From Akkermansiaceae bacterium (GTDB lineage: Bacteria; Verrucomicrobiota; Verrucomicrobiia; Verrucomicrobiales; Akkermansiaceae): a stretch of DNA of 64,000 bases. Position numbers and translations under genes: made by a program. Within the stretch, counting starts at the first letter, position 1, and every line of letters begins with the position of its first letter. The DNA lies in contig SUVL01000006.1 of NCBI GenBank assembly GCA_015062005.1, positions 11,029-75,028 of the forward strand. The letters are read 5' to 3'. Below are positions 7,833-49,562 of the stretch, piece by piece. The notes beneath the pieces are model-generated. The model did no database searches and was not told the DNA's origin. It saw nothing but the letters and a program-made list of their open reading frames with translations.

Positions 7833-7848
7833 GCCATATAAAAGGCGG

Positions 7849-9210: not shown

Positions 9211-9220
9211 GAGGGGGTGC

Positions 9221-10897
<1,677 letters not shown>

Positions 10898-10954
10898 GCG
10901 CGCGATTCTAACGCCAAAATACCCCTAAATCAAGACAAATCGGGCACATGACAC

Positions 10955-11638: not shown

Positions 11639-11706
11639 GGATACGTGTGGGGATAAGCAAGGCGGCCCACAATTTGCACTAGCCAAGGCGGACGATATGT
11701 GGTAGA

Positions 11707-13370: not shown

Positions 13371-14692
13371 TCCGAAATGCGCACAGGAACGAGCGTGCCG
13401 ACTTCCGCTGTGCCGCCGGGGATGATGACGGGCTTGTTCTGCGAGGTGCGGCCCTGGAGACGGTCGGGGTTGTTCTTGCTCGGGCCTTCCACCAGGATGG
13501 TCTGCTCCGTGCCCACCAGTGCCTGGTTGCGGGCCACGGCGATGCGGTTCACGGTTTCGAGCAGGTCATGGTTGCGCTCTTCCTTCACGCGCAGGCAAAT
13601 CTGGTTATCCATGGCGGCGGCCACGGTATCGCGGCGCGGGGAGTACTGGAACACAAAGGCATTATCGAACTGAATGCGCTCCACCGCGGCCTTGGTTTCC
13701 AGATAGTCTTCATGCGTTTCGCCAGGGAAACCCACGATGATATCTGTGGTGATAGCGAGATCGGGGCGGGCCTCGCGCATGGCTTCGCAGAGCCGCAGGT
13801 ATTTCTCGTTCTTGTACGGGCGGCGCATGAGCTGCAGAATGCGGTCACTGCCGCTCTGCATGGGAAAGTGGATGTGGCTGCACAACTTGGGCAGGTAGGT
13901 GTAGGCATTCACCAGGTCCTGGCGGAAGCCGATGGGGTGCGGGCTGGTGAAGCGGATGCGCTCCAGTCCGTCCATGTCATTGAGCTTTTCGAGCAGACGG
14001 ACAAAGGCACCGCGGCCATCGATGACCGGTTCATCCTTGCCGTAGCGGTTCACAATCTGTCCCAGCAGAGTCACTTCCTTCACCCCGCGGTCGACCAGCT
14101 CGCGCACTTCCTGCAGAATGTCCGCCTCCGGGCGGCTGCATTCGGAGCCTCGGGTGCTGGGCACGATGCAGTAGGAACAGCGCATCTCGCAGCCCTGCAT
14201 GATGGAGACGAAGGCCGTGCAGTTACCGGCGGGGGGCAGGTGGTCGCGGATGGCGTTCTGGAAGCCTTCTTCCTGCTGCGTGGCGCAGATGTGCGCACCG
14301 CGGCGGATGGGGGCGAACTCTGCCTGACCCAGGCGGCTGCGCAGCAGCCGGTTGCAGAGTTTGTACACATTGTGGTACTGCTGGGTGCCGGTTACGATAT
14401 CCAGGCGGGGTACATCGCGGAAGAGGGAGGCGGCGCGGCTCTGGCACATGCAGCCCATGAATCCGTACACCACCCAGGGTTTGGCTGTGGGACGGGCGCA
14501 GAGCAGCCCCATCTTGCCCAGTGCTTTCAGCTCGGCTTTCTCTCGCACCGAGCAGGTGTTGATGAGGATGACATCCGCCTGGGCTTCATCCCTGGTCAGC
14601 TCATAGCCGCCGGCCAGGAACATGCTCGCCACCTGTTCGGAGTCGCGCTCGTTCATCTGGCAACCGTAAGTCTTAATCAGTACACTGGGCAT
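13334..14692 (-). CDS. miaB: tRNA-2-methylthio-N6-dimethylallyladenosine synthase
   Basis: 452 aa with TYGCQMN, a radical-SAM CSYCIVP motif and a TRAM C-terminus. Confidence 0.9.
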   Translation of the reverse strand: MPSVLIKTYGCQMNERDSEQVASMFLAGGYELTRDEAQADVILINTCSVREKAELKALGKMGLLCARPTAKPWVVYGFMGCMCQSRAASLFRDVPRLDIVTGTQQYHNVYKLCNRLLRSRLGQAEFAPIRRGAHICATQQEEGFQNAIRDHLPPAGNCTAFVSIMQGCEMRCSYCIVPSTRGSECSRPEADILQEVRELVDRGVKEVTLLGQIVNRYGKDEPVIDGRGAFVRLLEKLNDMDGLERIRFTSPHPIGFRQDLVNAYTYLPKLCSHIHFPMQSGSDRILQLMRRPYKNEKYLRLCEAMREARPDLAITTDIIVGFPGETHEDYLETKAAVERIQFDNAFVFQYSPRRDTVAAAMDNQICLRVKEERNHDLLETVNRIAVARNQALVGTEQTILVEGPSKNNPDRLQGRTSQNKPVIIPGGTAEVGTLVPVRISECTGFTLYGEVV

Positions 14693-14772
14693 GCGCGTAT
14701 GCTAGCACACGCGCATGCTCTTGAAAAGCTCAATTCAAGTCTGCTTTGGCTTTTGGTATCTCTGTCAGAGTC

Positions 14773-15498
14773 CTAAATCAGCTCCTTGAGACGGTTGACC
14801 GTGATGCCGGGAACCACGTAACGAGTTCCATCCGCCCTGGCCAGAATGGGGGAACCATCGAAATCCACGCCGATGAAACGGCCTACATGGCGTTCTTTAT
14901 CAGTGATGGCAACCACAGGGAGGGACTCTCCCCAGGCGGTACCCAGTATGGGAAGAATGCTATCTACGCCGCTTTCTACAAAATAGCTGAACATTTCAGC
15001 CAGGGTATCACCCAGGAGGGTGCGGAGTTTCTTGATGGATGGGCAGGCCGGGAGAACCTCGCAGAGCCGCGTGACCGGGTCAGCGGCTTTTTCCCGGATA
15101 TCGTTGATATCGTTGAACATGTTGATGCCGATGCCGATAGAGGCCATATCGGTGGACGGACGCTCCACCAGGATGCCGGCCAGCTTGGCTTTGCCTACCA
15201 GTACATCATTCGGCCAGCGGAGCCGCAGTCCCTTGATGTTATATTCCTTGAGCGTTTCGATGACGGCGGCGCCAGCCACGAGAGGAAGTACACCCCAGTG
15301 GCGGTTCAGCTTGGAATCAATCGGCAGGTTATAGGTAGCCCAGAGACCGCCTGTGTTGCCGAACCAGGTGCGGTTGAAACGGCCGCGTCCGCGAGTCTGC
15401 CGCTGCGTGGTGACGATGGTCCATGCCGGCAACTTGCGGGCCACATTGAATGTGGATTCGCATTCCTCAATTTCCTTTACTGTCCATTTGGCGCTCAC
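14773..15498 (-). CDS. birA: Biotin--[acetyl-CoA-carboxylase] ligase (no HTH domain)
   Basis: 241 aa with the GRGRFNRTW motif (GRGRxGRxW). Confidence 0.85.
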   Translation of the reverse strand: MSAKWTVKEIEECESTFNVARKLPAWTIVTTQRQTRGRGRFNRTWFGNTGGLWATYNLPIDSKLNRHWGVLPLVAGAAVIETLKEYNIKGLRLRWPNDVLVGKAKLAGILVERPSTDMASIGIGINMFNDINDIREKAADPVTRLCEVLPACPSIKKLRTLLGDTLAEMFSYFVESGVDSILPILGTAWGESLPVVAITDKERHVGRFIGVDFDGSPILARADGTRYVVPGITVNRLKELI

Positions 15499-15636
15499 AG
15501 CAGCATTCTACACCACAAGTGGAGTTAAGTCTACCCCCTAACATGCAAATTTTTGAGAAATTACGCATTTGGGGCAGACGGGGAAGCCGGTTCACGCACG
15601 CGTGCCCAAAAAGTTTGGCCATGCCCTACTTTGCAA

Positions 15637-15665
15637 TTGCGGAATCGGGCAAGCTCTGGTATAGT
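15637..15665 (+). promoter_or_regulatory. Sigma70-type promoter TTGCGG-17-TATAGT
   Basis: The -10 ends 12 nt before the ATG at 15678, which implies a very short leader or none. Confidence 0.45.
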
Positions 15666-15677
15666 GTGCGCGTTAAT

Positions 15678-16787
15678 ATGAGGGGCCGCGGAACCAGACG
15701 TTTCCTGATGTGCATCGCACTAGTTGCTGCGGTGTGGGGTGGTGTGTCTACCTGGTTCTATGTGAATGATTTAGCGCAACCTGTTCTGAAGCCGCTCAAC
15801 CAGTCGTACGAGGGGTACACAAATGTGCCCCGCAAGGCGCCCGGGCTGCGTATGGAGCCTTTTACCTTCACCGGCTGGGATGGCGGCGAGGTGCAGGCCG
15901 TGATTGCTGTGAAGGATGGCGAGGAATCCTCCCGCCAGCTGAGTGTCATTGGTGATTTGATGCACAACCCGGTGGAACGCTTGCATCAGATTGATTATGT
16001 GCTGGTCTGCGTGGACTGGGATCACGGCATCCGTTCGGCTCTGCCGGTAGCGGAGTCGCTTACAGCGGCCGGGCTCACCTGTGTGTTGTGGGAGCCCCGC
16101 GGTAAGGATGACCGCCGCCCCTATTGCACCCATGGACTCAAGGAATGCCGCGATGTCCCCATGCTGATAGACGCTGTGACGGCGCGTTCCGGAAAGAAAA
16201 ATCCTGTTTTTGCGGCTGTGGGGCAGGGCTATGGAGCCGGCCTTCTGCTGCAGGCTGCCGCCACCGAACCACGCATCCGCGGCTTGGTCTCCATTGATGC
16301 ATATGCCTCCCTGCGTCAGTCGGTGGAGCGCACGATGCCGGAAGGTATCCTGCGCCCGGTGGTGATGTGGTTGATGGACCAGCGCATCCGCCGCACGGCG
16401 GGAATGGAAAGTTTTGATGTGGCGCCGGTGGAGCAGGCGGCAGACATGGACCGCAACGTGCCTGTGCTGGTGGTGAACCTGGCGCAAGACAACCCGGTGA
16501 GCAATTTCAAGGATGCTCTGACTATCTACCGCCGCTTAAGCAGTGATCAGCGGGCTGTGTGGACCCTGCGCAATGATTCTGATCCGGCGGGTGCTACGCA
16601 CCGGGAAATGACCCTGGGGCGCGGGCGCCGCGGGCTTTCGGTGAGTGTGGGCTTGCTGGCCGACGAGGACAGCGCCATGAGTTCGATTGTGCATTGGATT
16701 AACGAACGGGTTGTGGATGCCGTAGAGGCGCCCCGGGTGAGCGACCCAGCCCGTCCTGACCTTACATCTTCCAATATCAGACTCTGA
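15678..16787 (+). CDS. Membrane-anchored alpha/beta-hydrolase-like protein (nucleophile motif degenerate)
   Basis: Internal Met of the 445-aa track ORF gives MRGRGTRRFLMCIALVAAVWGG, a TM anchor. The nucleophile elbow reads GQGYG rather than GxSxG. Confidence 0.45.
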   Translation: MRGRGTRRFLMCIALVAAVWGGVSTWFYVNDLAQPVLKPLNQSYEGYTNVPRKAPGLRMEPFTFTGWDGGEVQAVIAVKDGEESSRQLSVIGDLMHNPVERLHQIDYVLVCVDWDHGIRSALPVAESLTAAGLTCVLWEPRGKDDRRPYCTHGLKECRDVPMLIDAVTARSGKKNPVFAAVGQGYGAGLLLQAAATEPRIRGLVSIDAYASLRQSVERTMPEGILRPVVMWLMDQRIRRTAGMESFDVAPVEQAADMDRNVPVLVVNLAQDNPVSNFKDALTIYRRLSSDQRAVWTLRNDSDPAGATHREMTLGRGRRGLSVSVGLLADEDSAMSSIVHWINERVVDAVEAPRVSDPARPDLTSSNIRL

Positions 16788-24984: not shown

Positions 24985-25172
24985 AGCGTGATGAGAAACG
25001 AGACGGGCTGACGGGATTTTGCCATATTACTAGAGCAGGGTCAAGCTTAATATGGGATGCAGAAGTCCCGATTTTGTTCAAATGTTATGATTTTTTTATA
25101 AAAAGGTTTTGAGACGTCCGGAATCGGGGATTGACATTCGGCTGCAATCTGTCAGAATATCCGCAGATTGAT

Positions 25173-27092
25173 ATGAGTACGTACGGATATTACCGTCTGG
25201 CTGCCGTTACACCCAAAGTGAAAGTGGCAGATGTGACCAGTAACACTGATGAGCTGGTGAAAGCGATGAGGAAAGCTGCCGAAGGTGGCGCTCACGTGGT
25301 ATTGTTTCCGGAGTTGTGCCTGACTGGAGCCAGCTGTGGTGATTTGTTTTTCCAACCGCATTTGCAGAATGCCGTGCTTCGTGCGCTGACTCGCTTTGCC
25401 AGTGAGACGGCTCGTTTGAAAATCCCTGCAATTCTGGGGTTCCCGCTCGTCGTGGGGGAGGGGATTTTTAATGTGGCTGCCGTGGTGCAGAGCGGGCATG
25501 TGCTGGGACTTGTGCCCAAGAGTATACTGCCGGGAAACAGGAGTGCGTATGAGAACCGGCAGTTCCGTCCGGCTGCGGAATTACAGGTGAAGGAAGTTGA
25601 GCTCCCAGGCTTCGGCTGTGTGCCGATTGGTTCAGATTTATTGTTCACCGATGGTCTGGAGCTGACCTTTGGTATAGAGGTGGCTGATGATTTGTGGGGG
25701 GTGATTCCGCCCAGCAGCCAGTTGGCTTTGCAAGGTGCCAGGGTTATTTTTAATCCGGGGGCATCCATGGCGCTGGCCGGTGCAGCTTCATATTGCCGCA
25801 GCCTGGTTGCGCAGCAGAGCGCCCGCTGCCAGGCGGCTTATGTGTACTCCTCCGCAGGCGTGGGAGAGAGCACCCAGGATGCCGTTTACGGCGGTCAGGC
25901 CATCATCGCAGACAATGGCCGCGTGGCCGCTGAGAATGAATTATTTATCCGGGAGACGAGTGTCATTTATGCAGATGTGGATTTGCAGCGCTTGGGTGCG
26001 GCCCGCTGCAGTGAGGGCTGTTACAATGACAGCCGCGCGCTGGCCTCGGTGCCTCCCGCCCGCAAGTTGCTGCTGGGTAAATTTGATTCGCGTTGTGACC
26101 TGGCATATGCATGGCTGCCGTCCCGCCCCTTCATTCCGGCTCCGGAGGAGCGCAACACGCGCTGCGAGGAAATCCTGAGCACCCAGGCTGCGGCCCTGGC
26201 CAAGCGTATTGAGCACACACACGCCCGAAGTCTGGTAATTGGTATTTCCGGCGGCTTGGACAGCACCCTGGCTCTGATGGTGTGTGCTCGTGCGTGTCGT
26301 CTCCTCGGGCTGCCGAACAGCACAATTCTTGCTGTGACCATGCCGGGGTTCGGTACCACCGGGCGCACGCATAACAACGCCGTGGCCATGATGAAGTTAC
26401 TCGGCGTTTCCTTCAAGGAGGTGGATATCAAAGAGTCTTGTCTCCTGCAGTTCCAGGATCTGGGGTTCGACCCCGCCTTGCGTACGAGTACCTACGAGAA
26501 TGTGCAGGCTCGCCAGCGTACCAGCATTCTGATGAATCTGGCCAATATGACCGGTGGCATGGTGGTCGGCACCGGCGACCTTTCTGAAATTGCTCTGGGC
26601 TGGTCCACCTACAATGGGGACCACATGAGCATGTATGGTGTCAACTGCTCCGTGCCCAAAACGCTTATCCGCTGCCTGCTGGGGTATGAGGCTGAACATT
26701 GCGGCAATGCCATGCTGGCCGAGACGATACAGGATGTGATTGATACCCCGGTGAGCCCGGAACTGCTGCCCCCTGCAGATGACGGCAGCATGGAGCAGAA
26801 GACGGAGGACATCCTCGGGCCATACGACTTGCATGATTTCTTCCTCTACCACTTTGTGAAGTATGGTGCGGAACCGACCAAACTCAGGGTGCTGGCCCAG
26901 CTTGCCTTTGCTGGTGAATTCCCGGAAGAACTCATAGGGCGCACACTGGAAACGTTCCTCCGCCGCTTCTTCCAGCAGCAGTTTAAGCGAAGCTGCGTGC
27001 CCGATGGCCCGAAAGTCGGCTCGATTGCGCTTTCTCCCCGTGGCGATTGGCGCATGCCGACAGATGCCTGCGGCGAGCTCTGGAAACCTTGA
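25173..27092 (+). CDS. nadE: NAD+ synthase, long two-domain type (nitrilase-like domain + synthetase domain)
   Basis: Starts MSTYGYYRLAAV. The synthetase P-loop SGGLDS is present. The nitrilase-domain Glu (FPEL) and Lys (VPKS) are present, but the expected Cys in the EICED motif reads EVADD. Confidence 0.88.
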   Translation: MSTYGYYRLAAVTPKVKVADVTSNTDELVKAMRKAAEGGAHVVLFPELCLTGASCGDLFFQPHLQNAVLRALTRFASETARLKIPAILGFPLVVGEGIFNVAAVVQSGHVLGLVPKSILPGNRSAYENRQFRPAAELQVKEVELPGFGCVPIGSDLLFTDGLELTFGIEVADDLWGVIPPSSQLALQGARVIFNPGASMALAGAASYCRSLVAQQSARCQAAYVYSSAGVGESTQDAVYGGQAIIADNGRVAAENELFIRETSVIYADVDLQRLGAARCSEGCYNDSRALASVPPARKLLLGKFDSRCDLAYAWLPSRPFIPAPEERNTRCEEILSTQAAALAKRIEHTHARSLVIGISGGLDSTLALMVCARACRLLGLPNSTILAVTMPGFGTTGRTHNNAVAMMKLLGVSFKEVDIKESCLLQFQDLGFDPALRTSTYENVQARQRTSILMNLANMTGGMVVGTGDLSEIALGWSTYNGDHMSMYGVNCSVPKTLIRCLLGYEAEHCGNAMLAETIQDVIDTPVSPELLPPADDGSMEQKTEDILGPYDLHDFFLYHFVKYGAEPTKLRVLAQLAFAGEFPEELIGRTLETFLRRFFQQQFKRSCVPDGPKVGSIALSPRGDWRMPTDACGELWKP

Positions 27093-27123: not shown

Positions 27124-27447
27124 ATGGAACGAATTGAACAAGCTTTAGCCACTTTCCGCCAGAAACCCCTTATGTACAACTGTGCGCAGACGGTGTGTGC
27201 AGCATTCGGGCGGGAGGATCTGGTTGAATCCATGGCATCCTGCGGCGGCGGCCGCGCACCGGAGGGAACCTGCGGTGCCCTGTATGGAGCCATGCAGGTG
27301 ATGCCGGAAAAATCTGCGGCTCTGCTGGCAGCCTTTGTTGCGGCGAATGGTGCTTCCACCTGCCGTGAACTCAAGGGTTGCAACAGGGTGCCCTGCCAGG
27401 AATGCGTGCGCCGCGCCGCTTCCATCCTGGTTGAGCTCGGGGCGTGA
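27124..27447 (+). CDS. C_GCAxxG_C_C family protein
   Basis: 107 aa with NCAQTV...CGALYGA...CREL...CQECV. Confidence 0.75.
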   Translation: MERIEQALATFRQKPLMYNCAQTVCAAFGREDLVESMASCGGGRAPEGTCGALYGAMQVMPEKSAALLAAFVAANGASTCRELKGCNRVPCQECVRRAASILVELGA

Positions 27448-27467
27448 GCCACTGTTTTTTTTACGAA

Positions 27468-27507
27468 GGAGGAGGTGGAACGCTGTTACCACCTCCTGTT
27501 TCAGTTT
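27468..27507 (+). terminator. Rho-independent terminator
   Basis: Stem aggaggtgg / ccacctcct followed by GTTTCAGTTT. Confidence 0.6.
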
Positions 27508-27543
27508 GCCTGTGCAGCCCGGTTGTGATAAACCGTGCTGCAT

Positions 27544-30033
27544 ATGCAGGAGATTCCCATTGTTCTAGGCTTTACTTCCGGTGAGCTCAGCCCCTGGCTG
27601 GCCACCCGGTATGATTTGCAGGCTTACCAGCGCGGAGCCGCGGAGATAACGAATTTTCAGATTCAGCCCTACGGAGGAATTCAGTTGAGACCGGGCACAT
27701 ATTATGTCCGCACCTTGAGTTCGGCAAACGTCCGGCTGTTTCCGTTTCACTATGCAGAAAATGATGCATTGCTGTTGGAGTTCTATCCTGGCGGCATGCA
27801 TGTGTACAAGGCGGGCGCAATGGTATTGACGGCAGAGGAGATTCCATATGTTCTGATTACGCCGTGGAAGACTGCGGAGCAGCTTGCCTCGCTTCATTTT
27901 AACCAGGTGAATGATGCTGTGTATGTGTGCTGTCCTTCCCATCCGCCTGTGGTATTGTATCGCTACACTGATGCAAACTGGACCTGTGTGCAACCCGATT
28001 TCAAGGAGCCGCCGCGTGAAACACACGCTGCGCAAGCCGGTCTGCTATCCGTTGTATTCGAAAGAGGCGGGCTTTACGCCAACCTCACCATAGAAGGGGG
28101 AGAGCAGGGGTTCAGCCCGGATATGGAAAACAAGGAAATCCTGCTGGCAGATGCCGTTATCCCCAGTCGCATTTTGTTCGCCAACCAGATTCAGGAAACC
28201 ACAGCCAGGCCAGTTCCCGATATCTCGGTTACCGGGGTATCAAAAGATACCACCTGGTACCAGACCGATGAGGTGGCAGCCCTCCACTATTTTTACCGTT
28301 GCATTCGCGATTATCCCGTCAGCGCATTCAGCGGCAGCAAGAACCTGAGCGATTATCCCCATTATTTCCAGCCCGGCATCATGCGCCTGGATGAAAACCT
28401 GACTCCGTATGAGGTGGAAGGGGATTGGGAATTGACGACGAGCTCCACCTGGAATGGCTACTGGGAATTGTGGCGAAGTTATGACACCCCGGAAGACGAA
28501 CCGGATTTTCATCTTTGGAATTGGAGCTGCATTAAGAGCTTTTCCCAATCGGACTACGAAACGCGGCAGAATTGGGCTATCAGTGGTTCTGAACCACGGC
28601 CTTGCCGCATGGTGCTGGTCTGCCGCTGCAGTTCCGATGCCCAGACTCTCGGCGCCATACTCCAATTCCGAATTTTAGGTGGCAAACGCGAGTATCGCCT
28701 GCGCATCACCTCGGTTACGGACGAAAAGCACGCCCGGGCTCGAACCTTGCAGACCTTCCTGGGGCCGAGCATAAGTTACTCAACCCGTATGTGGAGCTTT
28801 GGCGCTATGGGGCCGCGAAATGGTTATCCGTCCTTTTCGGCTATGTTTCAGGGGCGTTTGTGGTTAGGTGGTATGCCGGGGCTGCCGACTACCCTGCTGG
28901 CCAGCGCAATAGATGATTTCCAGAATTTCCGGGTAGGGTCCAATGATGATGCTTCCATGAATCTGCGAATTATGGGGAGCGACCAAAGCCGGATTTGCTG
29001 GTTGTGCGCCACCCGTCAATTGCTTGTAGGCACATCGGATAGCGAGTGGGTGGTTGCATCGGGTGCAGGGAATGCGCTTACCCCTTCCAATGTTTCGTTC
29101 CGTCGCCAATCCTCAGTAGGGAGCGAGGCTATGCCTGCCCGCGCCGTGGAAAACACCGTCGTGTTTGTGCAGCGCGGGGGACGCAGGATGCGAGAGATTG
29201 CCTATCGCCTCGAATCGGATGGTTTTTCGACCACGGATATCAGCATGCTGGCGGAGCATTTGTTTGCATCCGGAATAAAGGACTGGTGTGTGCAGCGCGG
29301 TTCGAACTTCAATATCTGGGTTCTGATGAACGATGACACCCTGGCTGTGCTGACGATTAACCTTGAGCAGCAGGTGACCGCCTGGCAGCGGATTGAGCTG
29401 GGTGGCCGAAAGGTGCTTGGCATGGCAGCATTACAAAGCTCGGCAGGTAAGGATGACGAAATGTGGTTCGCTCTGCAGGTGGTGAGTTCCGGCGCGGTTG
29501 TGTTGGAGCGCATGTGCAACGATGCCCCGCACCTTGACAGTATGGAAGAGGTGGTTTCTGAGAAGAATATGGAGCTTAAATGCTCCAGCCACCTGGCTGG
29601 AACCGAGCTCTTCGTGGTGGATGTTGAGACGGATGCGACCATCCTCTGTTACGGCACGGCGGCGGGCCTGAGGGCATTGCCCAGTGTCAGGAAGGGGCGC
29701 AGATACCGCGCTGGCATTCCTATTGAAGCCCGGTTGCAGACCATGCCCCTGGAAGGCCATGTCAGTTTCAATTCCGTCCGCCAGTTCTGCCGTTTCAAGT
29801 TGAGACTGCTCAGGAGCGATACGGATTTTGAATTCCGAAGCACAGCCAATCCGGCATGGGAACGACTCACTCCCGGGTATTATCCGGAGCTATCTAATTC
29901 TTATACAGGTGCGCTGCGCTTGTCGCTGATGCCGGATGCCGCAGTAGGACAGGCTCTTTGCATCCGCTATTTCGGACACCATGACTTCCGCCTTCTTGCC
30001 ATTACCCAGGAGGTGGACCATCATGGTAAGTGA
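27544..30033 (+). CDS. Podovirus tail tubular protein B (T7 gp12 / nozzle)-like protein, solitary
   Basis: 829 aa from the ATG; the track ORF begins at GTG 27535. The match to my recollection of T7 gp12 is block-wise. The N-terminal block is GELSPWLATRYDLQAY..N..GGIQLRPG. The central blocks are FQGRLWLGG, DDASMNLRI.., LLVGTSDSEWVV..LTPSNVSFRRQSS and VTAWQRIELG. Confidence 0.5.
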   Translation: MQEIPIVLGFTSGELSPWLATRYDLQAYQRGAAEITNFQIQPYGGIQLRPGTYYVRTLSSANVRLFPFHYAENDALLLEFYPGGMHVYKAGAMVLTAEEIPYVLITPWKTAEQLASLHFNQVNDAVYVCCPSHPPVVLYRYTDANWTCVQPDFKEPPRETHAAQAGLLSVVFERGGLYANLTIEGGEQGFSPDMENKEILLADAVIPSRILFANQIQETTARPVPDISVTGVSKDTTWYQTDEVAALHYFYRCIRDYPVSAFSGSKNLSDYPHYFQPGIMRLDENLTPYEVEGDWELTTSSTWNGYWELWRSYDTPEDEPDFHLWNWSCIKSFSQSDYETRQNWAISGSEPRPCRMVLVCRCSSDAQTLGAILQFRILGGKREYRLRITSVTDEKHARARTLQTFLGPSISYSTRMWSFGAMGPRNGYPSFSAMFQGRLWLGGMPGLPTTLLASAIDDFQNFRVGSNDDASMNLRIMGSDQSRICWLCATRQLLVGTSDSEWVVASGAGNALTPSNVSFRRQSSVGSEAMPARAVENTVVFVQRGGRRMREIAYRLESDGFSTTDISMLAEHLFASGIKDWCVQRGSNFNIWVLMNDDTLAVLTINLEQQVTAWQRIELGGRKVLGMAALQSSAGKDDEMWFALQVVSSGAVVLERMCNDAPHLDSMEEVVSEKNMELKCSSHLAGTELFVVDVETDATILCYGTAAGLRALPSVRKGRRYRAGIPIEARLQTMPLEGHVSFNSVRQFCRFKLRLLRSDTDFEFRSTANPAWERLTPGYYPELSNSYTGALRLSLMPDAAVGQALCIRYFGHHDFRLLAITQEVDHHGK

Positions 30034-30039
30034 GGCGCC

Positions 30040-31407
30040 TCAGTCCAGACGCACCGGTTTGCCGGGTTCGGGAGTGATTACTTCCGTTCCCGGCATGCGG
30101 TTCTTGAGCTCTGCGCTGAGCGATTCGACTGCCGGCGGGTCGCCATGGACAAGCAGCACCTTTTTCGGATTCAGTTTGCAGGCATATTCAATAAGCGCGC
30201 GGCGTGTGGCGTGGCCTGAGAAATCAAAGCATTCCACCCGGCAATTGAGCGGGTAAGCCTGACCTCCCTTTTCGCGCAGATGCACCAGTTCACCATGATG
30301 GGCAGCCTTGATTTTTCCGGCGGGGGTTTCCGGGTCACTGTAACCCACGAAGAGTATGGCATCGTTCGGGTGGGTTATTATCTGCTCAGCCAGGATGTGG
30401 GAGACGGTGTGCTCACTCATCATACCGCTGGATACCAGGTAGATGTTGCCTGGTGAGGCAACCAGCGGAGCCTTGCCCTGGCGGGGGAGCCCGTGCGTTT
30501 CCACATGCTCCTTGATGCGGAAGCCGGGGGTGAGACGCGGAGTGCTGTCGGCCAGCTTGTCGTATACGGCGGTAATTTTGGAACTCAGACCGCCGAAATA
30601 GACAGGCACATCCGGGATGAGCCCCTGTTCCTTGAAACGGCCAATCTCAGTGAGCAGGCACTGGCTCTTGCCCAGGGCAAACACCGGGATGAGCACGGCG
30701 CCATCATTCTCCAATACGTCGCGGATTGTATCGGCAAAGCGGCGGAGTTCTTTCTCCCGGGTGTATCCGGCATTGCGCTCGGTGCAGCCGTGTGTGCTTT
30801 CCATGATGAGGATATCAATGCCGCTCTGCGGGAAATCCGCACCGGCGATAAGGGTCTGGTTGTCGAACTGTACGTCACCGGTATAGAGGATGGTGGCGCC
30901 GCTTTCGCTCTCAAGTTCTACTCCGCAGCTGCCCAGAATATGCCCGGCATCGTGCAGCGTGGCCAGCACACAGCCGTTGCGGCCAATGCGGAAGGGCGTG
31001 CCGTAGGGGCGGGGCATCCAGCAGCGGGCCACATGGTCCAGCTCAGCGTGCGTGTAGAACGGGTATTCGATGATGCCATCCTGGGTTCGTTTGGCTGTCA
31101 TTACGTTCACAGAGTTGTGCAGCATGGCCAGTCCCACTTCGCAGGTGGCGGCGGTCATGTTCACCTCGGCGGCAGGATATTTGTCTTGCAGTACGGGCAG
31201 GGTGCCGATGTGATCCAAGTGGGAGTGGGTAACGAAGATGGTATCGGGGTCAGCAGCTCCGATCAGGTTGAACTCCGGGGTGGCTTCTGCGCCTTCCTTC
31301 TTAGGGTGCATGCCGGAATCCAGCACAATGCGCACACCGTCCATATCGAGCAGGTAGCAGTTCGAGCCAATGTCGGTGTAGCGGGAAAGGTTTGTGAAAC
31401 TTATCAT
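30040..31407 (-). CDS. MBL-fold beta-CASP family hydrolase (RNA-metabolising type)
   Basis: Has the HSHLDHIG motif and MBL plus beta-CASP length. Start taken at MISFTNLSRY. Confidence 0.75.
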   Translation of the reverse strand: MISFTNLSRYTDIGSNCYLLDMDGVRIVLDSGMHPKKEGAEATPEFNLIGAADPDTIFVTHSHLDHIGTLPVLQDKYPAAEVNMTAATCEVGLAMLHNSVNVMTAKRTQDGIIEYPFYTHAELDHVARCWMPRPYGTPFRIGRNGCVLATLHDAGHILGSCGVELESESGATILYTGDVQFDNQTLIAGADFPQSGIDILIMESTHGCTERNAGYTREKELRRFADTIRDVLENDGAVLIPVFALGKSQCLLTEIGRFKEQGLIPDVPVYFGGLSSKITAVYDKLADSTPRLTPGFRIKEHVETHGLPRQGKAPLVASPGNIYLVSSGMMSEHTVSHILAEQIITHPNDAILFVGYSDPETPAGKIKAAHHGELVHLREKGGQAYPLNCRVECFDFSGHATRRALIEYACKLNPKKVLLVHGDPPAVESLSAELKNRMPGTEVITPEPGKPVRLD

Positions 31408-31474
31408 CGTGAAAATCAAGTGCGGGGCGAGGGTACACCATTTTGCCCGTTTTGTCAACGCCGGGCTTGGGTAA

Positions 31475-32584
31475 TCAGCCCTCCCGGCTGAGTGAGGAGC
31501 AGAGCTCTGCTACACTCCGTATCGTATCTCCAAGCCGGTAGGGATATGGCAGGGAATCGTATATGTGCGGGCGGTAGGCGTGCCATTGCTCCAGCCGGTC
31601 TGCGATTCCGGCATTATCGTTGGGCGACACGCGACCTTCCGGCAGGAAGGTGTCCAGTACTTCACCCACCACTCCGTGGTCATATCCGGCTACCGGGCGA
31701 CCCAGGGCAAGCGCTTCCAGCACGGTGCGGTCGTGGCAGGCTGGTGCTTTTGCCAACGACAGCACCACATCGCAGATGCAGATGACATCCCGCAAATCCG
31801 GGCGGTGCCCCAGCCAGGTGATTTGCTTTTCTATGCCGCTTGCTCTGAATAATTTCCTGAGCTTATTAAGGTAGGCCGCATCGGCACGCGCTGTGTCGCC
31901 GGCTATGTAGACATGCGCTGGCACGTTAATCTGGTTGAGCCTGGAGAGAACCGGCACCAGGTCTTCCAGTCCGTGCAGCGGGGTGATGGCTCCGGGTACG
32001 CATACGGATAAAGCCCCCTCCGGCTCCTTGCAGGAACGCATCCATTGTTGAATCCAGGCATCCGAGGGTTTGTATTCCGGGTTGCAGAGTTCTTCGTTGA
32101 CTCCGTATGGAATTACCCAGATGTTGCGTTCGGGATCAAGCTTTGCCCTTCGGGTCAGCTCATTACGCAAGTGGCGCGAGATGGCGACCAAGGCATCGCA
32201 GCGGTTCAGACTCGTGGCCCAGCCGGGATGCTTGGGGTAGGTGGTGTGAATGCCGATGATGCGGGGCCTCTGTTCTTCCGGCATGGCGTTGCACGCTCTC
32301 CAGGCCAGATTGGCCGCCGGGGTGGTGTAGGCCAGGATGATATCAGCCTTGGTTGATGCCACGAGCCTGCGTAATCTGCGCAGCTCATTGAGGTAAGTGA
32401 AGACAGCGATGTTGCGCGAGCTGTGGTGCTGCACGGATGATGCCGTGAGTCTCCCCACCAGCTCATTGGGAGGGGAAACCACCGTGTTGCGGAATCCTGC
32501 CTGCTGCAGGCCACAGGCCAGATCTGCTGCCAGCTGATTGACTCCACCTGGGCGAAGCCGCGGGCTGATGTGGAGCACGTTCAT
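31475..32584 (-). CDS. Glycosyltransferase family 4 (GT-B)
   Basis: 369 aa, paralogous to the adjacent gene (MNVLHISPRLRPGGVNQ vs MKVMHLLPSLSSGGVEQ; C-terminal E..ALGRPVAGY). Confidence 0.8.
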   Translation of the reverse strand: MNVLHISPRLRPGGVNQLAADLACGLQQAGFRNTVVSPPNELVGRLTASSVQHHSSRNIAVFTYLNELRRLRRLVASTKADIILAYTTPAANLAWRACNAMPEEQRPRIIGIHTTYPKHPGWATSLNRCDALVAISRHLRNELTRRAKLDPERNIWVIPYGVNEELCNPEYKPSDAWIQQWMRSCKEPEGALSVCVPGAITPLHGLEDLVPVLSRLNQINVPAHVYIAGDTARADAAYLNKLRKLFRASGIEKQITWLGHRPDLRDVICICDVVLSLAKAPACHDRTVLEALALGRPVAGYDHGVVGEVLDTFLPEGRVSPNDNAGIADRLEQWHAYRPHIYDSLPYPYRLGDTIRSVAELCSSLSREG

Positions 32585-32587
32585 GCC

Positions 32588-33697
32588 TTATTTCTTGCAG
32601 AGAGTATTGTAAAGCTCCAGGTGTGATTGAATCATATCTTCCCGGCGGTAGGGGGCGGGTACCGGGGTGACAGGGACTGGGCGGTCGGAGTACCATTTCT
32701 CCAGTAATTCCGCCATGGCTTGTGTATTGCCGGTGGGCACCATGCCGGCGGGCAGGAACTGGCGGAGCTGCTCGCCTACGCCGCCGTGCTCATAACCGGC
32801 TACAGGCCGCCCCAGGGAGAGGGCTTCCAGCGTGGTCTTGCCAAATGATTCCGGCTGCAGGGTCAGGGAGAGGGTCACATCACAGGCGCAGAGTACATCG
32901 GCCAGGTCTTTGCGGTGTCCAGTCCATGTGACGCAATCTGCCACGCCGGCTTTGTCGAAACCGGCCTGTACTTCTTCCCGGTATGCCTCCTTGCCTTTCT
33001 TTGTTTCGCCCACGATGACGGCGTGTGCCGGAATTCCCTTGCTGCGCAGGTGCTGGAGAATGGGTGCGAGATGTGGAGCTCCCTTCAGCCGAGTGATGCG
33101 GCCTGGCAGGCACAGCGTGTATTTGCCTTTCAGTTCCGGGTAATCGGAGTACCACTTGTCGAACCACTCCTGTGACGGCGTGTATTCCGGATTAAATTTC
33201 GCGGCATCAATCGAATTGGGGATGACGATGATGTTCTCTGCCGGGGTCTGGGGGTAATTTTGCAGGATGTGCTCCCGCATACATTCCGACACGGCAATGA
33301 CCTTATCCCCCCTGGCCATGACCGCAGAGTATGCGTTCACGGAGTGGAAACCGTGGAAAGAGGAAACGATGGAAGGCCTCTCGGCCGCGGGTATGCGCTT
33401 GCAGGCCAGCTGCCCCACCCAGGCAGGCACGCGGGAATGTACATGCAGTATATCCGGCTTCTCTGCGCGGATAAGCCGCGCGGTCTTGCCCACCTGGAAG
33501 AGGGTGAAGATACTTTTTTTGCCGATGGGGCGGGTGATATGCCGGGCCCCGGCGGCTTCGATACCCGGCACCATGCTGCCGCCTGCGGAAACAACAACAT
33601 TATCCACCCCGTGGGCGCAGAGCCCTTCGCAGAGCTCGAGTACGACTTGTTCCACCCCTCCGGAGCTGAGGGAAGGCAGGAGGTGCATCACTTTCAT
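32588..33697 (-). CDS. Glycosyltransferase family 4 (GT-B)
   Basis: 369 aa, tandem paralog of 31475..32584. Confidence 0.8.
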   Translation of the reverse strand: MKVMHLLPSLSSGGVEQVVLELCEGLCAHGVDNVVVSAGGSMVPGIEAAGARHITRPIGKKSIFTLFQVGKTARLIRAEKPDILHVHSRVPAWVGQLACKRIPAAERPSIVSSFHGFHSVNAYSAVMARGDKVIAVSECMREHILQNYPQTPAENIIVIPNSIDAAKFNPEYTPSQEWFDKWYSDYPELKGKYTLCLPGRITRLKGAPHLAPILQHLRSKGIPAHAVIVGETKKGKEAYREEVQAGFDKAGVADCVTWTGHRKDLADVLCACDVTLSLTLQPESFGKTTLEALSLGRPVAGYEHGGVGEQLRQFLPAGMVPTGNTQAMAELLEKWYSDRPVPVTPVPAPYRREDMIQSHLELYNTLCKK

Positions 33698-34662
33698 GGC
33701 ACTAGTTTGGGGAAATTATCCAGTATGTAGGTTGCGGCACGGCCTGCCTCGTTCATCACGGTGCCGGTTTTGGGGATTGTGTTGGTCTTGGCCCATTCGG
33801 TGAATCGGCACACGCTGCCATCGGCAATGAGCATATTCAGACCTCGCGCTATGCGGGAGGAATCCGGCTTGTGCGGGCCTTCCTTGGCCGGCATCTCGAT
33901 GATGCCCACGGGTGCCCCGCTGGAGAGAGCTTCGTATACCATGCTCACGCTGTCCTGCGACACCCACACTTCCTTGGCTTTAGCGAGATTTGCCGGCACC
34001 CAGTCCGGTCCGGTTTCCTCGACGGGAACCACGCGGATATTCGGGCAGGCGGTGGTCACATCGTGTACGAAATCTGCCGGGGTGCGGCGCGAAGTGGTGA
34101 GCACAATGGGGGTGGTGGTAAGGCGGGCAATGGAGGAAAGCTGGTTGAGCACCAGTTCTGCATCCCAGTTATAACTCTTGCTCGGACCTCCTATGAGAAT
34201 AAGCGTCTGTGTTTTGGCGATGTCCGGTGTGGGGCGTATCCCGTTGATGGCTCCGTTTGTCGGGAACACCTGGCCGTTGGCTTCAAAGCCGTCCGGCAGG
34301 TCATGGCGCGGGGTGATGCACAGGTCGAACATGCTGGCTGGCAGGCTCGGGCGCATGCACACCATGCACAGGCATCGCAGGTGGCGGGCCAGGCTCAGAG
34401 CTGCCAGGTGGGTGCCGTGGCCTGCACAGAGAATGAGGTCCGGGCGCGGGTAGGTCAGTTCCTTGCCTTTGTAGAAGAGCTTCTTGAACCAGCTCAGACC
34501 GGTGATGTCCACTTCGTAGCACTCGTGCTTGCGCTCAGGATTACGCTCGGTGGCTTGTTCGATAAGGGCGTTAGCCAGCCCACGGGTCTGGGAAAGGTGG
34601 CCTTTCTTGCCATCGCTGATGATGTAGATAATCATGGCTTTATTGGAGAGGGAGGGTGACAC
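33694..34662 (-). CDS. ELM1/GtrOC1-like (DUF1022) putative glycosyltransferase
   Basis: 322 aa with IISDGKKGHLSQTRGLANAL near the N-terminus. It has a 4-nt overlap with the downstream GT4 gene. Confidence 0.6.
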   Translation of the reverse strand: MSPSLSNKAMIIYIISDGKKGHLSQTRGLANALIEQATERNPERKHECYEVDITGLSWFKKLFYKGKELTYPRPDLILCAGHGTHLAALSLARHLRCLCMVCMRPSLPASMFDLCITPRHDLPDGFEANGQVFPTNGAINGIRPTPDIAKTQTLILIGGPSKSYNWDAELVLNQLSSIARLTTTPIVLTTSRRTPADFVHDVTTACPNIRVVPVEETGPDWVPANLAKAKEVWVSQDSVSMVYEALSSGAPVGIIEMPAKEGPHKPDSSRIARGLNMLIADGSVCRFTEWAKTNTIPKTGTVMNEAGRAATYILDNFPKLVP

Positions 34663-35929
34663 TGCCGCAGAGGGTGTGGCCCAGCAGCGGGGTGTTCAGG
34701 GTGCCGCAGGGCAGCGTTTCTTCGGTAACAAGCGTGACGGCTTCCGGGTCAAAGAGAAGCAGGGGCATTCCTTCCGGTTCCTCGGTGTCCATCACATCCG
34801 GGTAGGCAATGGAGCAGGGATTCACGCAGCATGACTTCACCAGTTCGCTCCAGCTCAGTCTGCCTGGCTTCACCAGGTAGGTGTAGAGCGTGGGCAGGAA
34901 GTGATCCAGCAGGCACATGCCTTGCGGTGCGGAGGGGAAATCCTGCTTCTTGGCGAAGGGTGTGCAGGGGGTGTGGTCGGAGACAATGCAGTCGATGGTG
35001 CCGTCCTTCACACCTGCCAGCAGGGCCTCGGTATCAGCCTTGTCGCGCAGCGGCGGCAGGGTCTTGTAGTTTGTGTCGTAATCACCCACATTCTCATGGG
35101 TGAAGAGGAGGTGGTGCAGGGCTACCTCGGCTGTCACCTGGCAACCGGCAGCCTTGGCGCGGCGGATGATTTCCACCCCTTCAGCCGTGCTTACGGTCTG
35201 CACGTGCAGCTTGCAGCCGGCATCCTGTGCCAGGCGCACAATGATTTCCAGGCCGATTTCCTCAGCGCAGGCAGGGGTGCCGTGCAGCCCCAGCTTGTAG
35301 GAAGTGGTGCCGGGGTGCATGCAGGTGTTGGCGGTGATGCTGGGCACATCGCCACGGATGGCCATAGTCATGCCGAGCTCGGCCACGTATTTCATGGCGC
35401 GGTGCATCATGAGCAGGTTGCCAGGGCGTTCGCCCGCATCGCTCAGGATGCTGATGCCGCGTGCGGCCAGTGTGTTGTAGGGAGCCTGCTGGTCGCCCTT
35501 CATACCGTGCGAGATGCAACCGGCGGGAATCATCTCTGCTGCGGAACGCTGCCCCACTGCATCGCGGAAACTGTCCAGCGCAGCGCTGTTGTCGAACATG
35601 AACCCGGCGGTGGGCTGCACCAGGATGCCCCATACGCCGCCTTGCACGGCTGCCTGGCCGGTGCGGGTCACCGATTCGCGCTTGCTGCGGCCTTCGATTT
35701 CCACTTTGGCGTGCATATCGAAGAGGGCTGGCAGAATCAGTTTTCCCGTAGCGTCGATGACACGGGCCCGTTCCGGGATATTCATCTGCCCGGCGGGGCG
35801 TACCTCCGCATCGCTGATGGTGATACCGCCGAACTCAGGCACAACCTGGCTGTGGCCCGGTGCCAGGCGGATGTCGAACTTCTCACCCGTGGGGGCCCAG
35901 GTGGCATTCCGAATGTAAGTACTAGTCAT
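34640..35929 (-). CDS. Dihydroorotase-like amidohydrolase, probably non-catalytic PyrC'-type
   Basis: 429 aa. It overlaps pyrB by 8 nt. The DxHxH motif reads DMHAK, the HxxH region reads HVQT, and SDHTP is retained. Confidence 0.7.
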   Translation of the reverse strand: MTSTYIRNATWAPTGEKFDIRLAPGHSQVVPEFGGITISDAEVRPAGQMNIPERARVIDATGKLILPALFDMHAKVEIEGRSKRESVTRTGQAAVQGGVWGILVQPTAGFMFDNSAALDSFRDAVGQRSAAEMIPAGCISHGMKGDQQAPYNTLAARGISILSDAGERPGNLLMMHRAMKYVAELGMTMAIRGDVPSITANTCMHPGTTSYKLGLHGTPACAEEIGLEIIVRLAQDAGCKLHVQTVSTAEGVEIIRRAKAAGCQVTAEVALHHLLFTHENVGDYDTNYKTLPPLRDKADTEALLAGVKDGTIDCIVSDHTPCTPFAKKQDFPSAPQGMCLLDHFLPTLYTYLVKPGRLSWSELVKSCCVNPCSIAYPDVMDTEEPEGMPLLLFDPEAVTLVTEETLPCGTLNTPLLGHTLCGSVTLPLQ

Positions 35930-36848
35930 TGTTCTGAGTCCGGGGGGTAAGGTAGGAAAGGATGCTCATGCGGGCGGCTACACCGTTTTCGACCTGGTTG
36001 CAGATGAGGCTGTTGCGGTATTCCATGGCGCTGTCGCACAGCTCTACTCCGCGGTTCACCGGGCCTGGGTGCATGATGCTTAAATCAAGGTCATCGATGC
36101 GCTTCAGGCGTTCCTCGGTCACACCGAAGGCATTGTGATAATCCGAGGAGGGGAAGAAGGGGGTGTCCATGCGCTCGTTCTGCACACGCAGCAGGTAGAT
36201 GACATCCGGCTTCCACTCGAACACGGCGTCCCAGTTCGTGAAGCGCGGAATGCCGGTGAACTTCTCCTGTGGCACCAGCGGGCCGGGCCCCATGTAGGCC
36301 ACGGCGGCTCCGAGCCGCTTCAGGATGGTGCTGGTGGAGCGGGCCACGCGGCTGTGCAGAATATCACCGATGATGACGACGCGCTTGCCACTCAGTTCGC
36401 CATATTTCTCCTGCAGGGTGAAGGCATCCAGGAAGGCCTGGCTGGGGTGCGCGTGGGCACCGTCGCCTGCGTTGATGACGGAGGCTTTGGCGTGTCGGCC
36501 GATGACGGCGGGGATGCCGCTGTTCTTGTGGCGCACGATGATGTAGTCCATGTGCATGCTCATGAGCGTGTCGATGGTGTCATGCACGCTTTCTCCCTTG
36601 ACCACGGATGAGGTGGCCACGGTGAAGGTGGTTACATCGGCCTGCAGGCGGCGAGCTGCCAGTTCGAACGAGGAGCGAGTGCGCGTGCTGGGCTCATAGA
36701 ACAGGGTGAGCACAGATTTTCCGGCCAGGGCCGGGTGGGTCTTGCCGCTGCAGAATACCTGCTTCATCTCCGCAGCGCCTTTCAGGATGCTGCGGATATC
36801 AGTATCGCTCAGCGAGTCGATGGTGAGAAGGTCTTTAGGCGTACTCAT
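35922..36848 (-). CDS. pyrB: Aspartate carbamoyltransferase catalytic subunit
   Basis: 308 aa with STRTRSSFE, HPSQ and HPGP motifs. Confidence 0.93.
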   Translation of the reverse strand: MSTPKDLLTIDSLSDTDIRSILKGAAEMKQVFCSGKTHPALAGKSVLTLFYEPSTRTRSSFELAARRLQADVTTFTVATSSVVKGESVHDTIDTLMSMHMDYIIVRHKNSGIPAVIGRHAKASVINAGDGAHAHPSQAFLDAFTLQEKYGELSGKRVVIIGDILHSRVARSTSTILKRLGAAVAYMGPGPLVPQEKFTGIPRFTNWDAVFEWKPDVIYLLRVQNERMDTPFFPSSDYHNAFGVTEERLKRIDDLDLSIMHPGPVNRGVELCDSAMEYRNSLICNQVENGVAARMSILSYLTPRTQNND

Positions 36849-49485: not shown

Positions 49486-49562
49486 GGCGGTAGGGCATAG
49501 GGTGGGTTGGGGTAGTTTGCACCGCGGGGATGAGTAATTCATCCCCGCGGGTGCAGAGAATC

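Follow-up and report, generated by a model that had tools for sequence, protein, structure and literature searches.

The open reading frame (ORF) at positions 27544-30033 of a 64,000-nt stretch of DNA from an Akkermansiaceae bacterium (assembly GCA_015062005.1, contig SUVL01000006.1, positions 11,029 to 75,028, forward strand; the whole stretch is hereinafter referred to as the window) encodes a full-length, bona fide homolog of the podovirus nozzle (tail tubular protein B). The nozzle of short-tailed phages seals and releases the phage DNA; Akkermansia, including Akkermansia muciniphila, is a gut bacterium, and it appears to have put the nozzle gene to its own use. We consider this gene to be, probably, a solitary domesticated (exapted) podovirus nozzle of the Akkermansia lineage whose product would most likely still be a gated docking hexamer. 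The evidence that bears on this assignment comprises the profile and structure matches of the protein, the distribution and genomic contexts of its gene, the selection acting on it, the transcription of the A. muciniphila ortholog and the gene cluster found in the sister clade.

The ORF, which had been described correctly from the letters alone, runs from the ATG at 27544 to the stop codon at 30031-30033. Its product has 829 aa, and the GTG found in frame at 27535 is unlikely to be the start. The product is predicted to be a soluble, cytoplasmic protein of 93 kDa with no signal peptide or transmembrane segment (maximum Kyte-Doolittle value 1.19 in a 19-residue window).

Relationship to podovirus nozzles

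The PHROG_376 'tail protein' profile matches the product along almost its entire length (E = 1.4e-121, residues 6-828 aligned with positions 7-711 of the 712 in the profile). A sequence search of PDB retrieved the 'Tail Nozzle' of Carin-1 (8ck1, E = 1.4e-36) and orf18 of LME-1 (9efk, E = 1.9e-10), and a tblastn search against 50,697 phage genomes yielded 227 records at ~29% identity, many of which are annotated as tail tubular protein B, in particular those of Pelagibacter podophages, BPP-1 and epsilon15-like phages. A family profile search collected 17,035 homologs. Pfam, NCBIfam and PADLOC contain no family to which the protein could be assigned.

The sequence-only reading had likened the protein to several blocks of T7 gp12. 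Given that the direct BLASTP comparison with T7 gp12 is not significant (E = 0.2), this kinship is drawn from profile and structure comparison. Alignment of the family profile with T7 gp12 using hhalign (E = 4.7e-5) pairs residues 424-823 of the query with residues 336-784 of T7 gp12 and recovers exactly the four quoted segment pairs (FQGRLWLGG/FFRNRLGFLSG, DDASMNLRI/DDPIDVAVS, LLVGTSDSEW/LLIWSDEAQF and VTAWQRIELG/QQSWSHWDFG). T7 gp12 is a distant relative (~15% identity), the nozzles of Carin-1, LME-1, BPP-1 and the HTVC type being closer.

An initial AlphaFold2 model built from 14 close sequences was poor across residues 427-576 (predicted local distance difference test score, pLDDT, of 69.8) and was replaced by a model from a 77-sequence alignment (pLDDT 91.7; predicted template modeling score, pTM, 0.85). 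In the Foldseek comparison with PDB, the top 17 matches are all podovirus nozzle chains, the best being 8ck1 (E = 1.8e-46, template modeling score, TM, 0.67), and the T7 gp12 entries 6r21, 7boy, 8e4g and 9jyz are recovered with E ~1e-22 to 1e-24 and TM 0.53-0.57; BFVD likewise yields tail tubular B or 'stabilization' proteins, for which TM reaches 0.74. Profile and structure searches alike give significant matches to solved nozzles and to T7 gp12 (E ~1e-23 in the structure comparison). The description of the product as a 'phage beta-propeller protein', also made from the letters, is apt with regard to the phage nozzle origin but too narrow with regard to the propeller, because both the profile match and the AlphaFold2 model indicate that the complete multi-domain nozzle has been kept.

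Distribution, descent and genomic contexts of the nozzle gene

A scan of GTDB with one genome per species revealed a relative of the nozzle gene in at least 125 genomes; the 80 of these that are listed all belong to Akkermansia or Akkermansiaceae, and nearly all encode a full-length protein. The identity of the listed homologs ranges from 93% down to ~47%, nearly all cover ~830 aa, and the few that carry a name are 'hypothetical proteins' of Akkermansia metagenome-assembled genomes (MAGs). The A. muciniphila group comprises a more distant branch (~30% identity) that includes isolates with complete chromosomes (e.g., WP_153950730.1 and QHV49461.1). By gene order, the A. muciniphila ortholog is Amuc_1819, annotated as 'hypothetical'; the genes around it encode an epimerase, a methyltransferase with a PUA domain, a KH protein and a further methyltransferase and include nagB (Amuc_1822), in agreement with PMC11480725, Supplementary Table 1.

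In the neighbor-joining tree, all Akkermansia-type nozzles form one clade (100% bootstrap). The pairwise distances between nozzles correlate with those between the adjacent beta-CASP proteins (r = 0.84, 435 pairs), with the nozzle changing at ~2 times the rate, and in more than 20 species the gene is flanked by the same housekeeping genes on both sides. These sequence comparisons show the nozzle gene to be ancient and vertically inherited in Akkermansia.

The nozzle gene (NOZ) is found alone in at least seven distinct housekeeping neighborhoods, none of which contains phage genes: nadE / C_GCAxxG / NOZ / beta-CASP; pyrH / frr / bactofilin / NOZ / beta-CASP; unknown ORF / NOZ / CCA-adding enzyme; rplN / NOZ; RlmI-like methyltransferase / NOZ / KhpA; SecA / NOZ / Ffh; and ABC transporter / NOZ / UvrD. 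As a positive control, the same annotation pipeline was applied to homologs from outside Akkermansia, and these sit in portal-capsid-adaptor-nozzle modules. The solitary placement that had been noticed in a single stretch of DNA is accordingly seen across one clade and seven housekeeping contexts.

ORF-based clustering of the neighbors in 133 loci is noisy because spurious antisense ORFs arise in GC-rich DNA and was used only to spot a recurrent small ORF. This ORF of ~90 aa (MTQRNITRYTYETTSFQGWRLSICRKWNQFTKYFSD...) is present at L084:12620-12895 and in ~28 other loci of the 47-50% identity group (e.g., L044, L051, L057 and L063), in most cases ~65-130 bp from the nozzle gene and in either orientation, whereas the window lacks it. 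Species with far more diverged nozzles share this small ORF at 82-100% identity, and its sole family match is a weak one to the AP2 domain (E = 0.05). A separate observation concerns loci L001, L002, L083, L084, L087/L090, L171 and L172, where the immediate neighbors of the nozzle gene are often RNA or translation genes (beta-CASP RNase, CCA-adding/poly(A) polymerase, rplN, Ffh, KhpA, RlmI-like methyltransferases and frr, with Fmt one gene further); this pattern was spotted post hoc and may be due to chance.

Selection and expression

The ratio of nonsynonymous to synonymous substitution rates (dN/dS) was estimated from genome pairs with unsaturated dS (0.5-1.2). For the nozzle gene, dN/dS is 0.06-0.08, equal to the values for the NadE and GT4 glycosyltransferase genes and slightly above those of the most constrained neighbors, which is indicative of purifying selection. 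An arms-race signal was sought in segments of 100 codons, and none has an elevated ratio (all at or below 0.11); the lowest values (0.03-0.06) extend over a broad region around residues ~300-500, with the minimum of 0.03 at residues 350-500. In the RNA-seq data for A. muciniphila MucT, Amuc_1819 is represented by 3657 reads (soy) and 2551 reads (mucus medium), counts that resemble those of dnaA, ligA and mutL; for the long-tailed prophage of the same strain, 1-446 reads were recorded per structural gene (Amuc_1334-1359).

Conservation along the protein

The domain order of T7 gp12, that is, N-terminal platform strands, seven-bladed propeller with the tip domain, fiber dock and C-terminal platform (PMC6702177), was mapped onto the query via the remote hhalign register, so that the domain limits in Table 1 derive from this register and not from model coordinates. 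In T7 gp12, the platform domain binds the adaptor, and gate 2 includes D478 (PMC6702177). Conservation of at least 90% in each of the four Akkermansia groups is seen at 100 positions, and phage nozzles conserve 59 of these as well. The consensus of residues 1-55 is close to that of the phage proteins (F10, G13, E14, P17, R22, D24, N37, G44, G45, R49 and G51). The insert at residues 161-290 is largely missing in phage nozzles, with 57% of the phage homologs gapped in this part, and lies outside the sequence alignment with 8ck1. The propeller region is matched by PHROG_15566 over residues 412-652 and by 8ck1 over residues 386-619. In the loop equivalent to gate 2, hhalign pairs T7 D478 with L556 of the query, and the Y.LE.DG motif, which the phage consensus also contains, does not vary among the Akkermansia groups. 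This pattern of constraint would fit retained docking and ring and gate formation, with fiber binding lost.

A metal site formed by cysteines (CxxC at 485-488, C354 and C360) was considered and rejected, given that the A. muciniphila group lacks these residues; no cysteine cluster, cluster of catalytic candidates or new site is conserved across all Akkermansia groups.

The region upstream of the nozzle gene

The 96-bp gap upstream of the nozzle gene holds a terminator-like hairpin and a promoter-like element (Table 1). The RNA fold of positions 27425-27550 has an energy of -55.7 kcal/mol (z = -4.3), no shuffled sequence folds as well, and the terminator stem is kept in other species by pairing-preserving changes (e.g., GGAGGTGG/CCACCTCC vs GGATGTGG/CCACATCC). 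In the promoter-like element, the TTG(C) and TG.TA.A.C columns are invariant across ten species from the syntenic group. Outside this group, a TGnTA-type box ~10-20 nt before the ATG was seen in most contexts that were checked, and in a few a TTGC/TTGA box as well. The terminator-separated promoter region that the sequence-only reading had attributed to the gene is represented by a conserved hairpin with a T-run and a conserved promoter-like element, at which a generic sigma-70 scan makes no call. Because this element ends 10 nt before the ATG, the mRNA would be leaderless or have a very short leader, and the nozzle gene looks like a self-contained transcription unit with little or no leader.

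A second stable hairpin, CCUGUGCAGC...GCUGCAUAUGCAGG (27506-27550), spans the -10-like box and the start codon of the nozzle gene and could affect translation or transcription.

A phage-derived gene cluster in the sister clade

The sister clade of the Akkermansia nozzles (96% bootstrap) was placed on contigs L176 and L177, the hosts of which are related to Akkermansia (aspartate transcarbamoylase, ATCase, 71%, Sod 60% and MurJ 54% identical to the counterparts in Akkermansia loci). The two contigs carry the same ~10-kb, 12-gene phage-derived cluster at different chromosomal sites (L176:3012-13089 and L177:2649-13086). On one strand, the cluster encodes the large subunit of the terminase (phrog_2, E = 1e-17), two small ORFs, the portal (PF12236; phrog_332, E = 1e-87), another two small ORFs, an M15 peptidase (a lysin with a weak match to Pfam M15_4) and a further two small ORFs, none of the small ORFs belonging to a family; on the other strand, it encodes the adaptor, or tubular protein A (phrog_394, E = 3e-38), the nozzle, itself a member of the nozzle family, and an internal-virion-protein-like ORF (phrog_418, E = 1e-5). 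No capsid or scaffold gene is recognized in the cluster, and housekeeping genes abut both of its ends. All 12 ORFs are intact in both contigs, nearly all with detectable identity between them (36-69%); judging from 12 intact ORFs in two diverged genomes, the cluster looks maintained, not decaying. A metagenome scan for close relatives of the sister group returned mostly A. muciniphila-type loci.

A terminase is found next to the nozzle in one Akkermansia lineage as well. Locus L067 (Akkermansia MAG RGIG7761, water buffalo; 2537-12496) contains, directly upstream of the nozzle gene, an intact gene for the terminase large subunit (8233-9843, 536 aa) that is 55-58% identical to the terminase of the sister clade. 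This gene overlaps by 4 nt the end of a 1899-aa ORF (2537-8236) for which there is no PDB or phage match. Inactivation of the L067 terminase, considered on account of a Walker A motif without lysine, was rejected because the motif KxRQLG[ILMF][ST]T occurs in true phage terminases of the lineage. Locus L178 yielded no PDB match and could not be annotated.

In gut viral contigs from IMG/VR (L179-L211; ~16-53 kb, mostly 30-43 kb), the nozzle, terminase and adaptor genes are adjacent. The terminases of these contigs are 47-50% identical to the Akkermansia and sister-clade terminase, many of the contigs with such terminases being 37-43 kb long, and the contigs are candidates for living phage relatives of the ancestral element.

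Evolutionary scenario and alternatives

In the scenario that we favor, an ancestor of Akkermansia would have acquired a podovirus-type element, of which the sister lineage would keep a relic (terminase, portal, lysin, adaptor, nozzle and internal virion protein, with no detectable capsid gene) and Akkermansia would have retained the nozzle gene alone. From the tightest constraint on the platform strands and the propeller and gate-2 loops, together with the drifted fiber dock, we infer that the protein most likely still assembles as a nozzle-type gated hexamer that would dock on a portal/adaptor-type ring. Provided that the core reading of a domesticated nozzle is right, phage-derived proteins encoded elsewhere in the genome can be tentatively proposed as the ring partner; a new cellular role with no ring partner appears doubtful, and it is unlikely that the nozzle of the host caps or poisons the adaptor-portal complexes of podophages during infection. 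Several observations weigh against domestication in this form. The nozzle gene switches neighborhoods unusually often in one subgroup, for which vertical descent with rearrangement is not a full explanation. No portal or adaptor homolog is present within 10 kb on either side in the other ~130 Akkermansia loci or in the 64-kb window, and, apart from one long-tailed prophage, neither a terminase nor a portal appears in the MucT annotation, which is weak evidence because many MucT genes are 'hypothetical'. Expression is supported at the level of transcripts, with Amuc_1819 read counts like those of dnaA, but the Amuc_1819 protein was not found in the proteomic supplements searched. Finally, the putative ring-and-dock mechanism depends on conservation mapped to T7 by remote alignment, and any function needing only the fold would keep the core residues equally well.

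According to one alternative, the nozzle gene completes a capsid-less or borrowed-capsid apparatus, the remaining parts of which (homologs of the portal, adaptor, terminase and internal proteins) would be dispersed over other sites of Akkermansia genomes; such an apparatus could be a particle resembling gene transfer agents (GTAs) or satellites, or a DNA conduit. As far as a multi-gene particle is concerned, there is no structural set at the window locus, a terminase is found beside the nozzle in one lineage, and the 12-gene cluster is found in the sister clade. That the sister clade keeps such a set intact at different loci of two diverged genomes, that the L067 terminase is intact and has the Walker A motif typical of its lineage, and that conservation of the protein peaks in the adaptor-docking strands of the platform are all compatible with a dispersed machine. 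However, none of the other ~130 loci, nor the window, has a portal, adaptor or terminase gene close to the nozzle, the MucT annotation names none outside the long-tailed prophage, a scan of viral contigs with a portal alignment found nothing related, and even the sister cluster has no recognized capsid gene, so we view dispersal of this kind with considerable doubt. It is also unlikely that Akkermansia and its relatives carry an unrecognized domesticated terminase-portal-adaptor-nozzle machine without a capsid gene of its own, with the genes scattered in Akkermansia and clustered in the sister lineage; if they did, the capsid-less machine could serve to transport DNA or could take over helper-phage capsids, with the nozzle homolog (Amuc_1819) supplying the gated nozzle. 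A lower probability is given to a host-encoded decoy, or 'poison nozzle', that would be idle until infection and then dock on the adaptor-portal of a podophage or mix into its nozzle hexamers; the resulting particles would be unable to bind fibers or to open correctly, which would amount to a population-level defense similar to that of the Fv1-type domesticated capsid genes in mammals. The protein is predicted to be cytoplasmic and its gene is constitutively transcribed, that is, it would be present where phage tails assemble; the platform and ring-forming regions are conserved while the fiber-dock equivalent drifts; and a minority of defective subunits could suffice in a hexamer. The T7 adaptor ring forms only on the portal (PMC6702177), and by analogy, a lone nozzle might stay unassembled until a phage supplies the ring. 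What makes the decoy improbable is the lack of an arms-race signature (dN/dS at most 0.11 throughout), the status of the nozzle as a core syntenic gene and not a patchy defense-island gene, the absence of a PADLOC match for the nozzle homolog or its neighbors, and the failure to identify, in this analysis, an Akkermansia podophage with a related adaptor.

Three further explanations were considered. The propeller and jelly-roll could have been re-used without a ring, whether in a monomer that acts as a scaffold, in a protein that binds glycans or is an enzyme, or in a factor associated with RNA, and in this respect the versatility of beta-propellers, the weak Foldseek matches to GH43 and sialidase-type propellers and to DDB1/CPSF160 scaffolds, the frequent RNA and translation neighbors, and the claims that tail tubular proteins have enzymatic or antibacterial activities on the side (PMC7582827) all deserve consideration. 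Given, however, that the most constrained residues are the family-wide nozzle signature with no new site among them, that no cysteine or catalytic cluster is common to all Akkermansia groups, that the protein has no secretion signal, which a mucin-directed enzyme would need, and that the neighbor pattern was recognized post hoc, enzymatic or lectin re-use of the nozzle fold is without specific support, and re-use of the fold without a ring is quite improbable. A functionless last piece of a decayed prophage, awaiting deletion, would account for the phage origin and the lack of phage neighbors but not for the essentially full length of the gene in nearly all 80 listed species genomes and in A. 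muciniphila or for the recurrence of the promoter-like element; because of the dN/dS of 0.06-0.08 and the transcription of Amuc_1819, we exclude a neutral remnant, to which only a minute probability can be assigned. Between the options of the sequence-only reading, an exapted phage protein or the remnant of a decayed prophage, exaptation is thus favored by the full length, the single clade, the dN/dS and the transcription, and 'remnant' is correct only as history because the sister clade still holds a terminase-portal-adaptor-nozzle cluster. Nothing beyond the phage ancestry of the gene speaks for the edge of an intact prophage extending outside the inspected sequence: the window contains housekeeping genes for 27 kb upstream and 34 kb downstream, the conserved flanks in more than 20 species are likewise housekeeping genes, and the only annotated A. 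muciniphila prophage is ~460 genes away and of the long-tailed type, so this possibility is practically negligible.

The window and its other genes

All sizeable ORFs of the window were compared with Pfam, and those without a Pfam match, except for a few small ones, were compared with PHROGs. The window is an ordinary Akkermansia-type chromosome segment that encodes tpiA, ftsH, rnc, lpxD, skp/OmpH, an old yellow enzyme (OYE) reductase, a MerR regulator and nadE and, past the nozzle gene, the beta-CASP protein, two GT4 glycosyltransferases, an Elm1-like protein, ATCase and dihydroorotase (the latter identified via NCBIfam), as well as AhpC, a GH84 hydrolase, a Nudix hydrolase, a ROK kinase, an extracytoplasmic function (ECF) sigma factor, an ABC transporter, a class II (D/K/N-type) aminoacyl-tRNA synthetase, lpxK, a DEAD-box helicase and trkH/trkA. 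The immediate neighbors of the nozzle gene (nadE, the C_GCAxxG protein and the beta-CASP hydrolase) are those named in the sequence-only reading, and its view of the gene as solitary among housekeeping genes agrees with the Pfam and PHROG scans, which detected no other clear phage gene in the window. No adaptor, portal or capsid gene lies beside the nozzle gene, and no flanking integrase or other phage gene is present at the locus, which has housekeeping genes on both sides (att repeats were not searched for). Rfam gave no match in the window.

Table 1. Features of the nozzle gene, its upstream region and its neighbors in the window
Feature	Position	Strand	Remarks
Nozzle (tail tubular protein B) homolog, coding sequence	27544..30033	+	829 aa, stop codon included
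N-terminal platform strands, residues 1-55	27544..27708	+	most conserved part, score 0.74 across four Akkermansia groups
Variable insert, residues 161-290	28024..28413	+	score 0.44 within Akkermansia
Propeller blades, residues 421-620	28804..29403	+	score ~0.7; strongest likeness to phage nozzles
Gate-2-equivalent loop, residues 554-560 (Y-R-L-E-S-D-G)	29203..29223	+	placed by hhalign; putative gate role after PMC6702177
Fiber-dock equivalent, residues 658-732	29515..29739	+	least conserved, score 0.40; putative position
C-terminal platform jelly-roll, residues 733-829	29740..30030	+	aligned to T7 gp12 ~680-784; score 0.60
Terminator-like hairpin GAAGGAGGAGGTGG...CCACCTCCTGTTTC, then T-rich tail	27465..27502	+	closes nadE / C_GCAxxG transcription unit
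Promoter-like element TTGCCT, 17-nt spacer, TG-a-TAAACC (extended -10-like)	27506..27534	+	putative function
NadE	25131-27092		upstream of nozzle gene; Pfam
C_GCAxxG protein	27124-27447		immediately upstream of nozzle gene; Pfam
Beta-CASP hydrolase	30040-31458	-	immediately downstream of nozzle gene; Pfam

Among the ten Pfam-less ORFs compared with PHROGs, one matched a family, of unknown function, and is the exception to the absence of other phage-related matches: a 632-aa ORF at 49563-51461 (minus strand; phrog_26846, E = 1.8e-28) that also has weak glutamine-amidotransferase-like Pfam matches and adjoins the ECF sigma factor gene (48883-49542, minus strand). Elsewhere in the window, a low-GC island at 4467-7398 on the minus strand (GC 0.46-0.51 vs ~0.57 for the window) contains two overlapping ORFs of 561 and 419 aa with no significant Pfam or PHROG match and may have been horizontally acquired. 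ORFs of 637, 227, 485 and 445 aa at 9038-11638, 13319-14776 and 15450-16787 (plus strand), with no Pfam or PHROG family, sit among rnc and the genes for transglutaminase-like, biotin/lipoate ligase-family and OmpA-domain proteins.

The nozzle gene and the convergent beta-CASP gene end 6 bp apart (30031-30042); as no terminator separates them, overlap of their transcripts is probable. The adjacency of the two genes persists in lineages down to 47% nozzle identity (L058). In comparisons of L003-L007 with window positions 31475-36848, the genes encoding the Elm1-like protein, dihydroorotase and ATCase have dS values of 0.08-0.3; in the same genome pairs, those encoding the nozzle, MerR, OYE and NadE have values of 0.5-1.2. 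This unevenness along the syntenic region suggests recombination mosaics or differing codon constraint.

Implications and comparison with known systems

The literature searched contains no description of a solitary chromosomal or domesticated nozzle, of Amuc_1819 or of the capsid-less cluster. The nozzle family and the domestication of phage genes are known; what is new is a single podovirus nozzle as a genus-wide core gene. Under strong purifying selection, a single gene of this kind from a short-tailed phage would represent a different route of domestication. The conserved 'hypothetical' protein Amuc_1819 gains a testable identity in an organism of major medical interest for which genetic tools exist; because A. 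muciniphila is genetically tractable, nozzle domestication is directly testable. Together with the sister cluster, the solitary gene forms part of a natural series (prophage, reduced cluster, single gene) in which the retention of virion parts and its purpose can be studied. Should the nozzle work with dispersed partners, it would point to an unrecognized phage-derived apparatus.

Compared with the podovirus nozzles (T7 gp12, Carin-1 8ck1, LME-1 orf18 9efk and PHROG_376), the Akkermansia protein shows a full-length profile match and the same multi-domain fold, and its platform strands and gate-2 loop carry the signature residues common to these nozzles, but it differs from them by the extra variable insert (residues 161-290) and the poorly conserved equivalent of the fiber dock; unlike the genes of these nozzles, the Akkermansia gene has no adaptor, portal, capsid or fiber gene nearby, is chromosomal and vertically inherited across the genus, and has a promoter-like element of its own. 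The nozzle of the sister cluster (L176/L177) is of the same length and architecture as the Akkermansia protein; it keeps its adaptor, portal and terminase neighbors, whereas the Akkermansia nozzle is alone in the window and in nearly all loci.

As in GTAs, tailocins (R- and F-pyocins), the type VI secretion system and extracellular contractile injection systems, a phage morphogenesis gene has in this case become chromosomal, vertically inherited and subject to purifying selection. Those systems, however, are multi-gene, derive from long-tailed phages and form a recognizable particle, whereas the Akkermansia case involves a single gene from a short-tailed phage. With respect to solitary genes, there are domesticated viral capsid genes that act as restriction factors, namely mouse Fv1, sheep enJS56A1 and the yeast Ty1-derived factor (PMC10951436). 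The Akkermansia nozzle resembles these in being a solitary virion-protein gene kept by the host that could disturb the assembly of related viruses; they differ in being eukaryotic and usually under positive selection, whereas selection on the Akkermansia nozzle is purely purifying and an antiviral role would be hypothetical. If infecting phages are indeed the target of the protein, bacteria would possess in it a counterpart of Fv1-type restriction.

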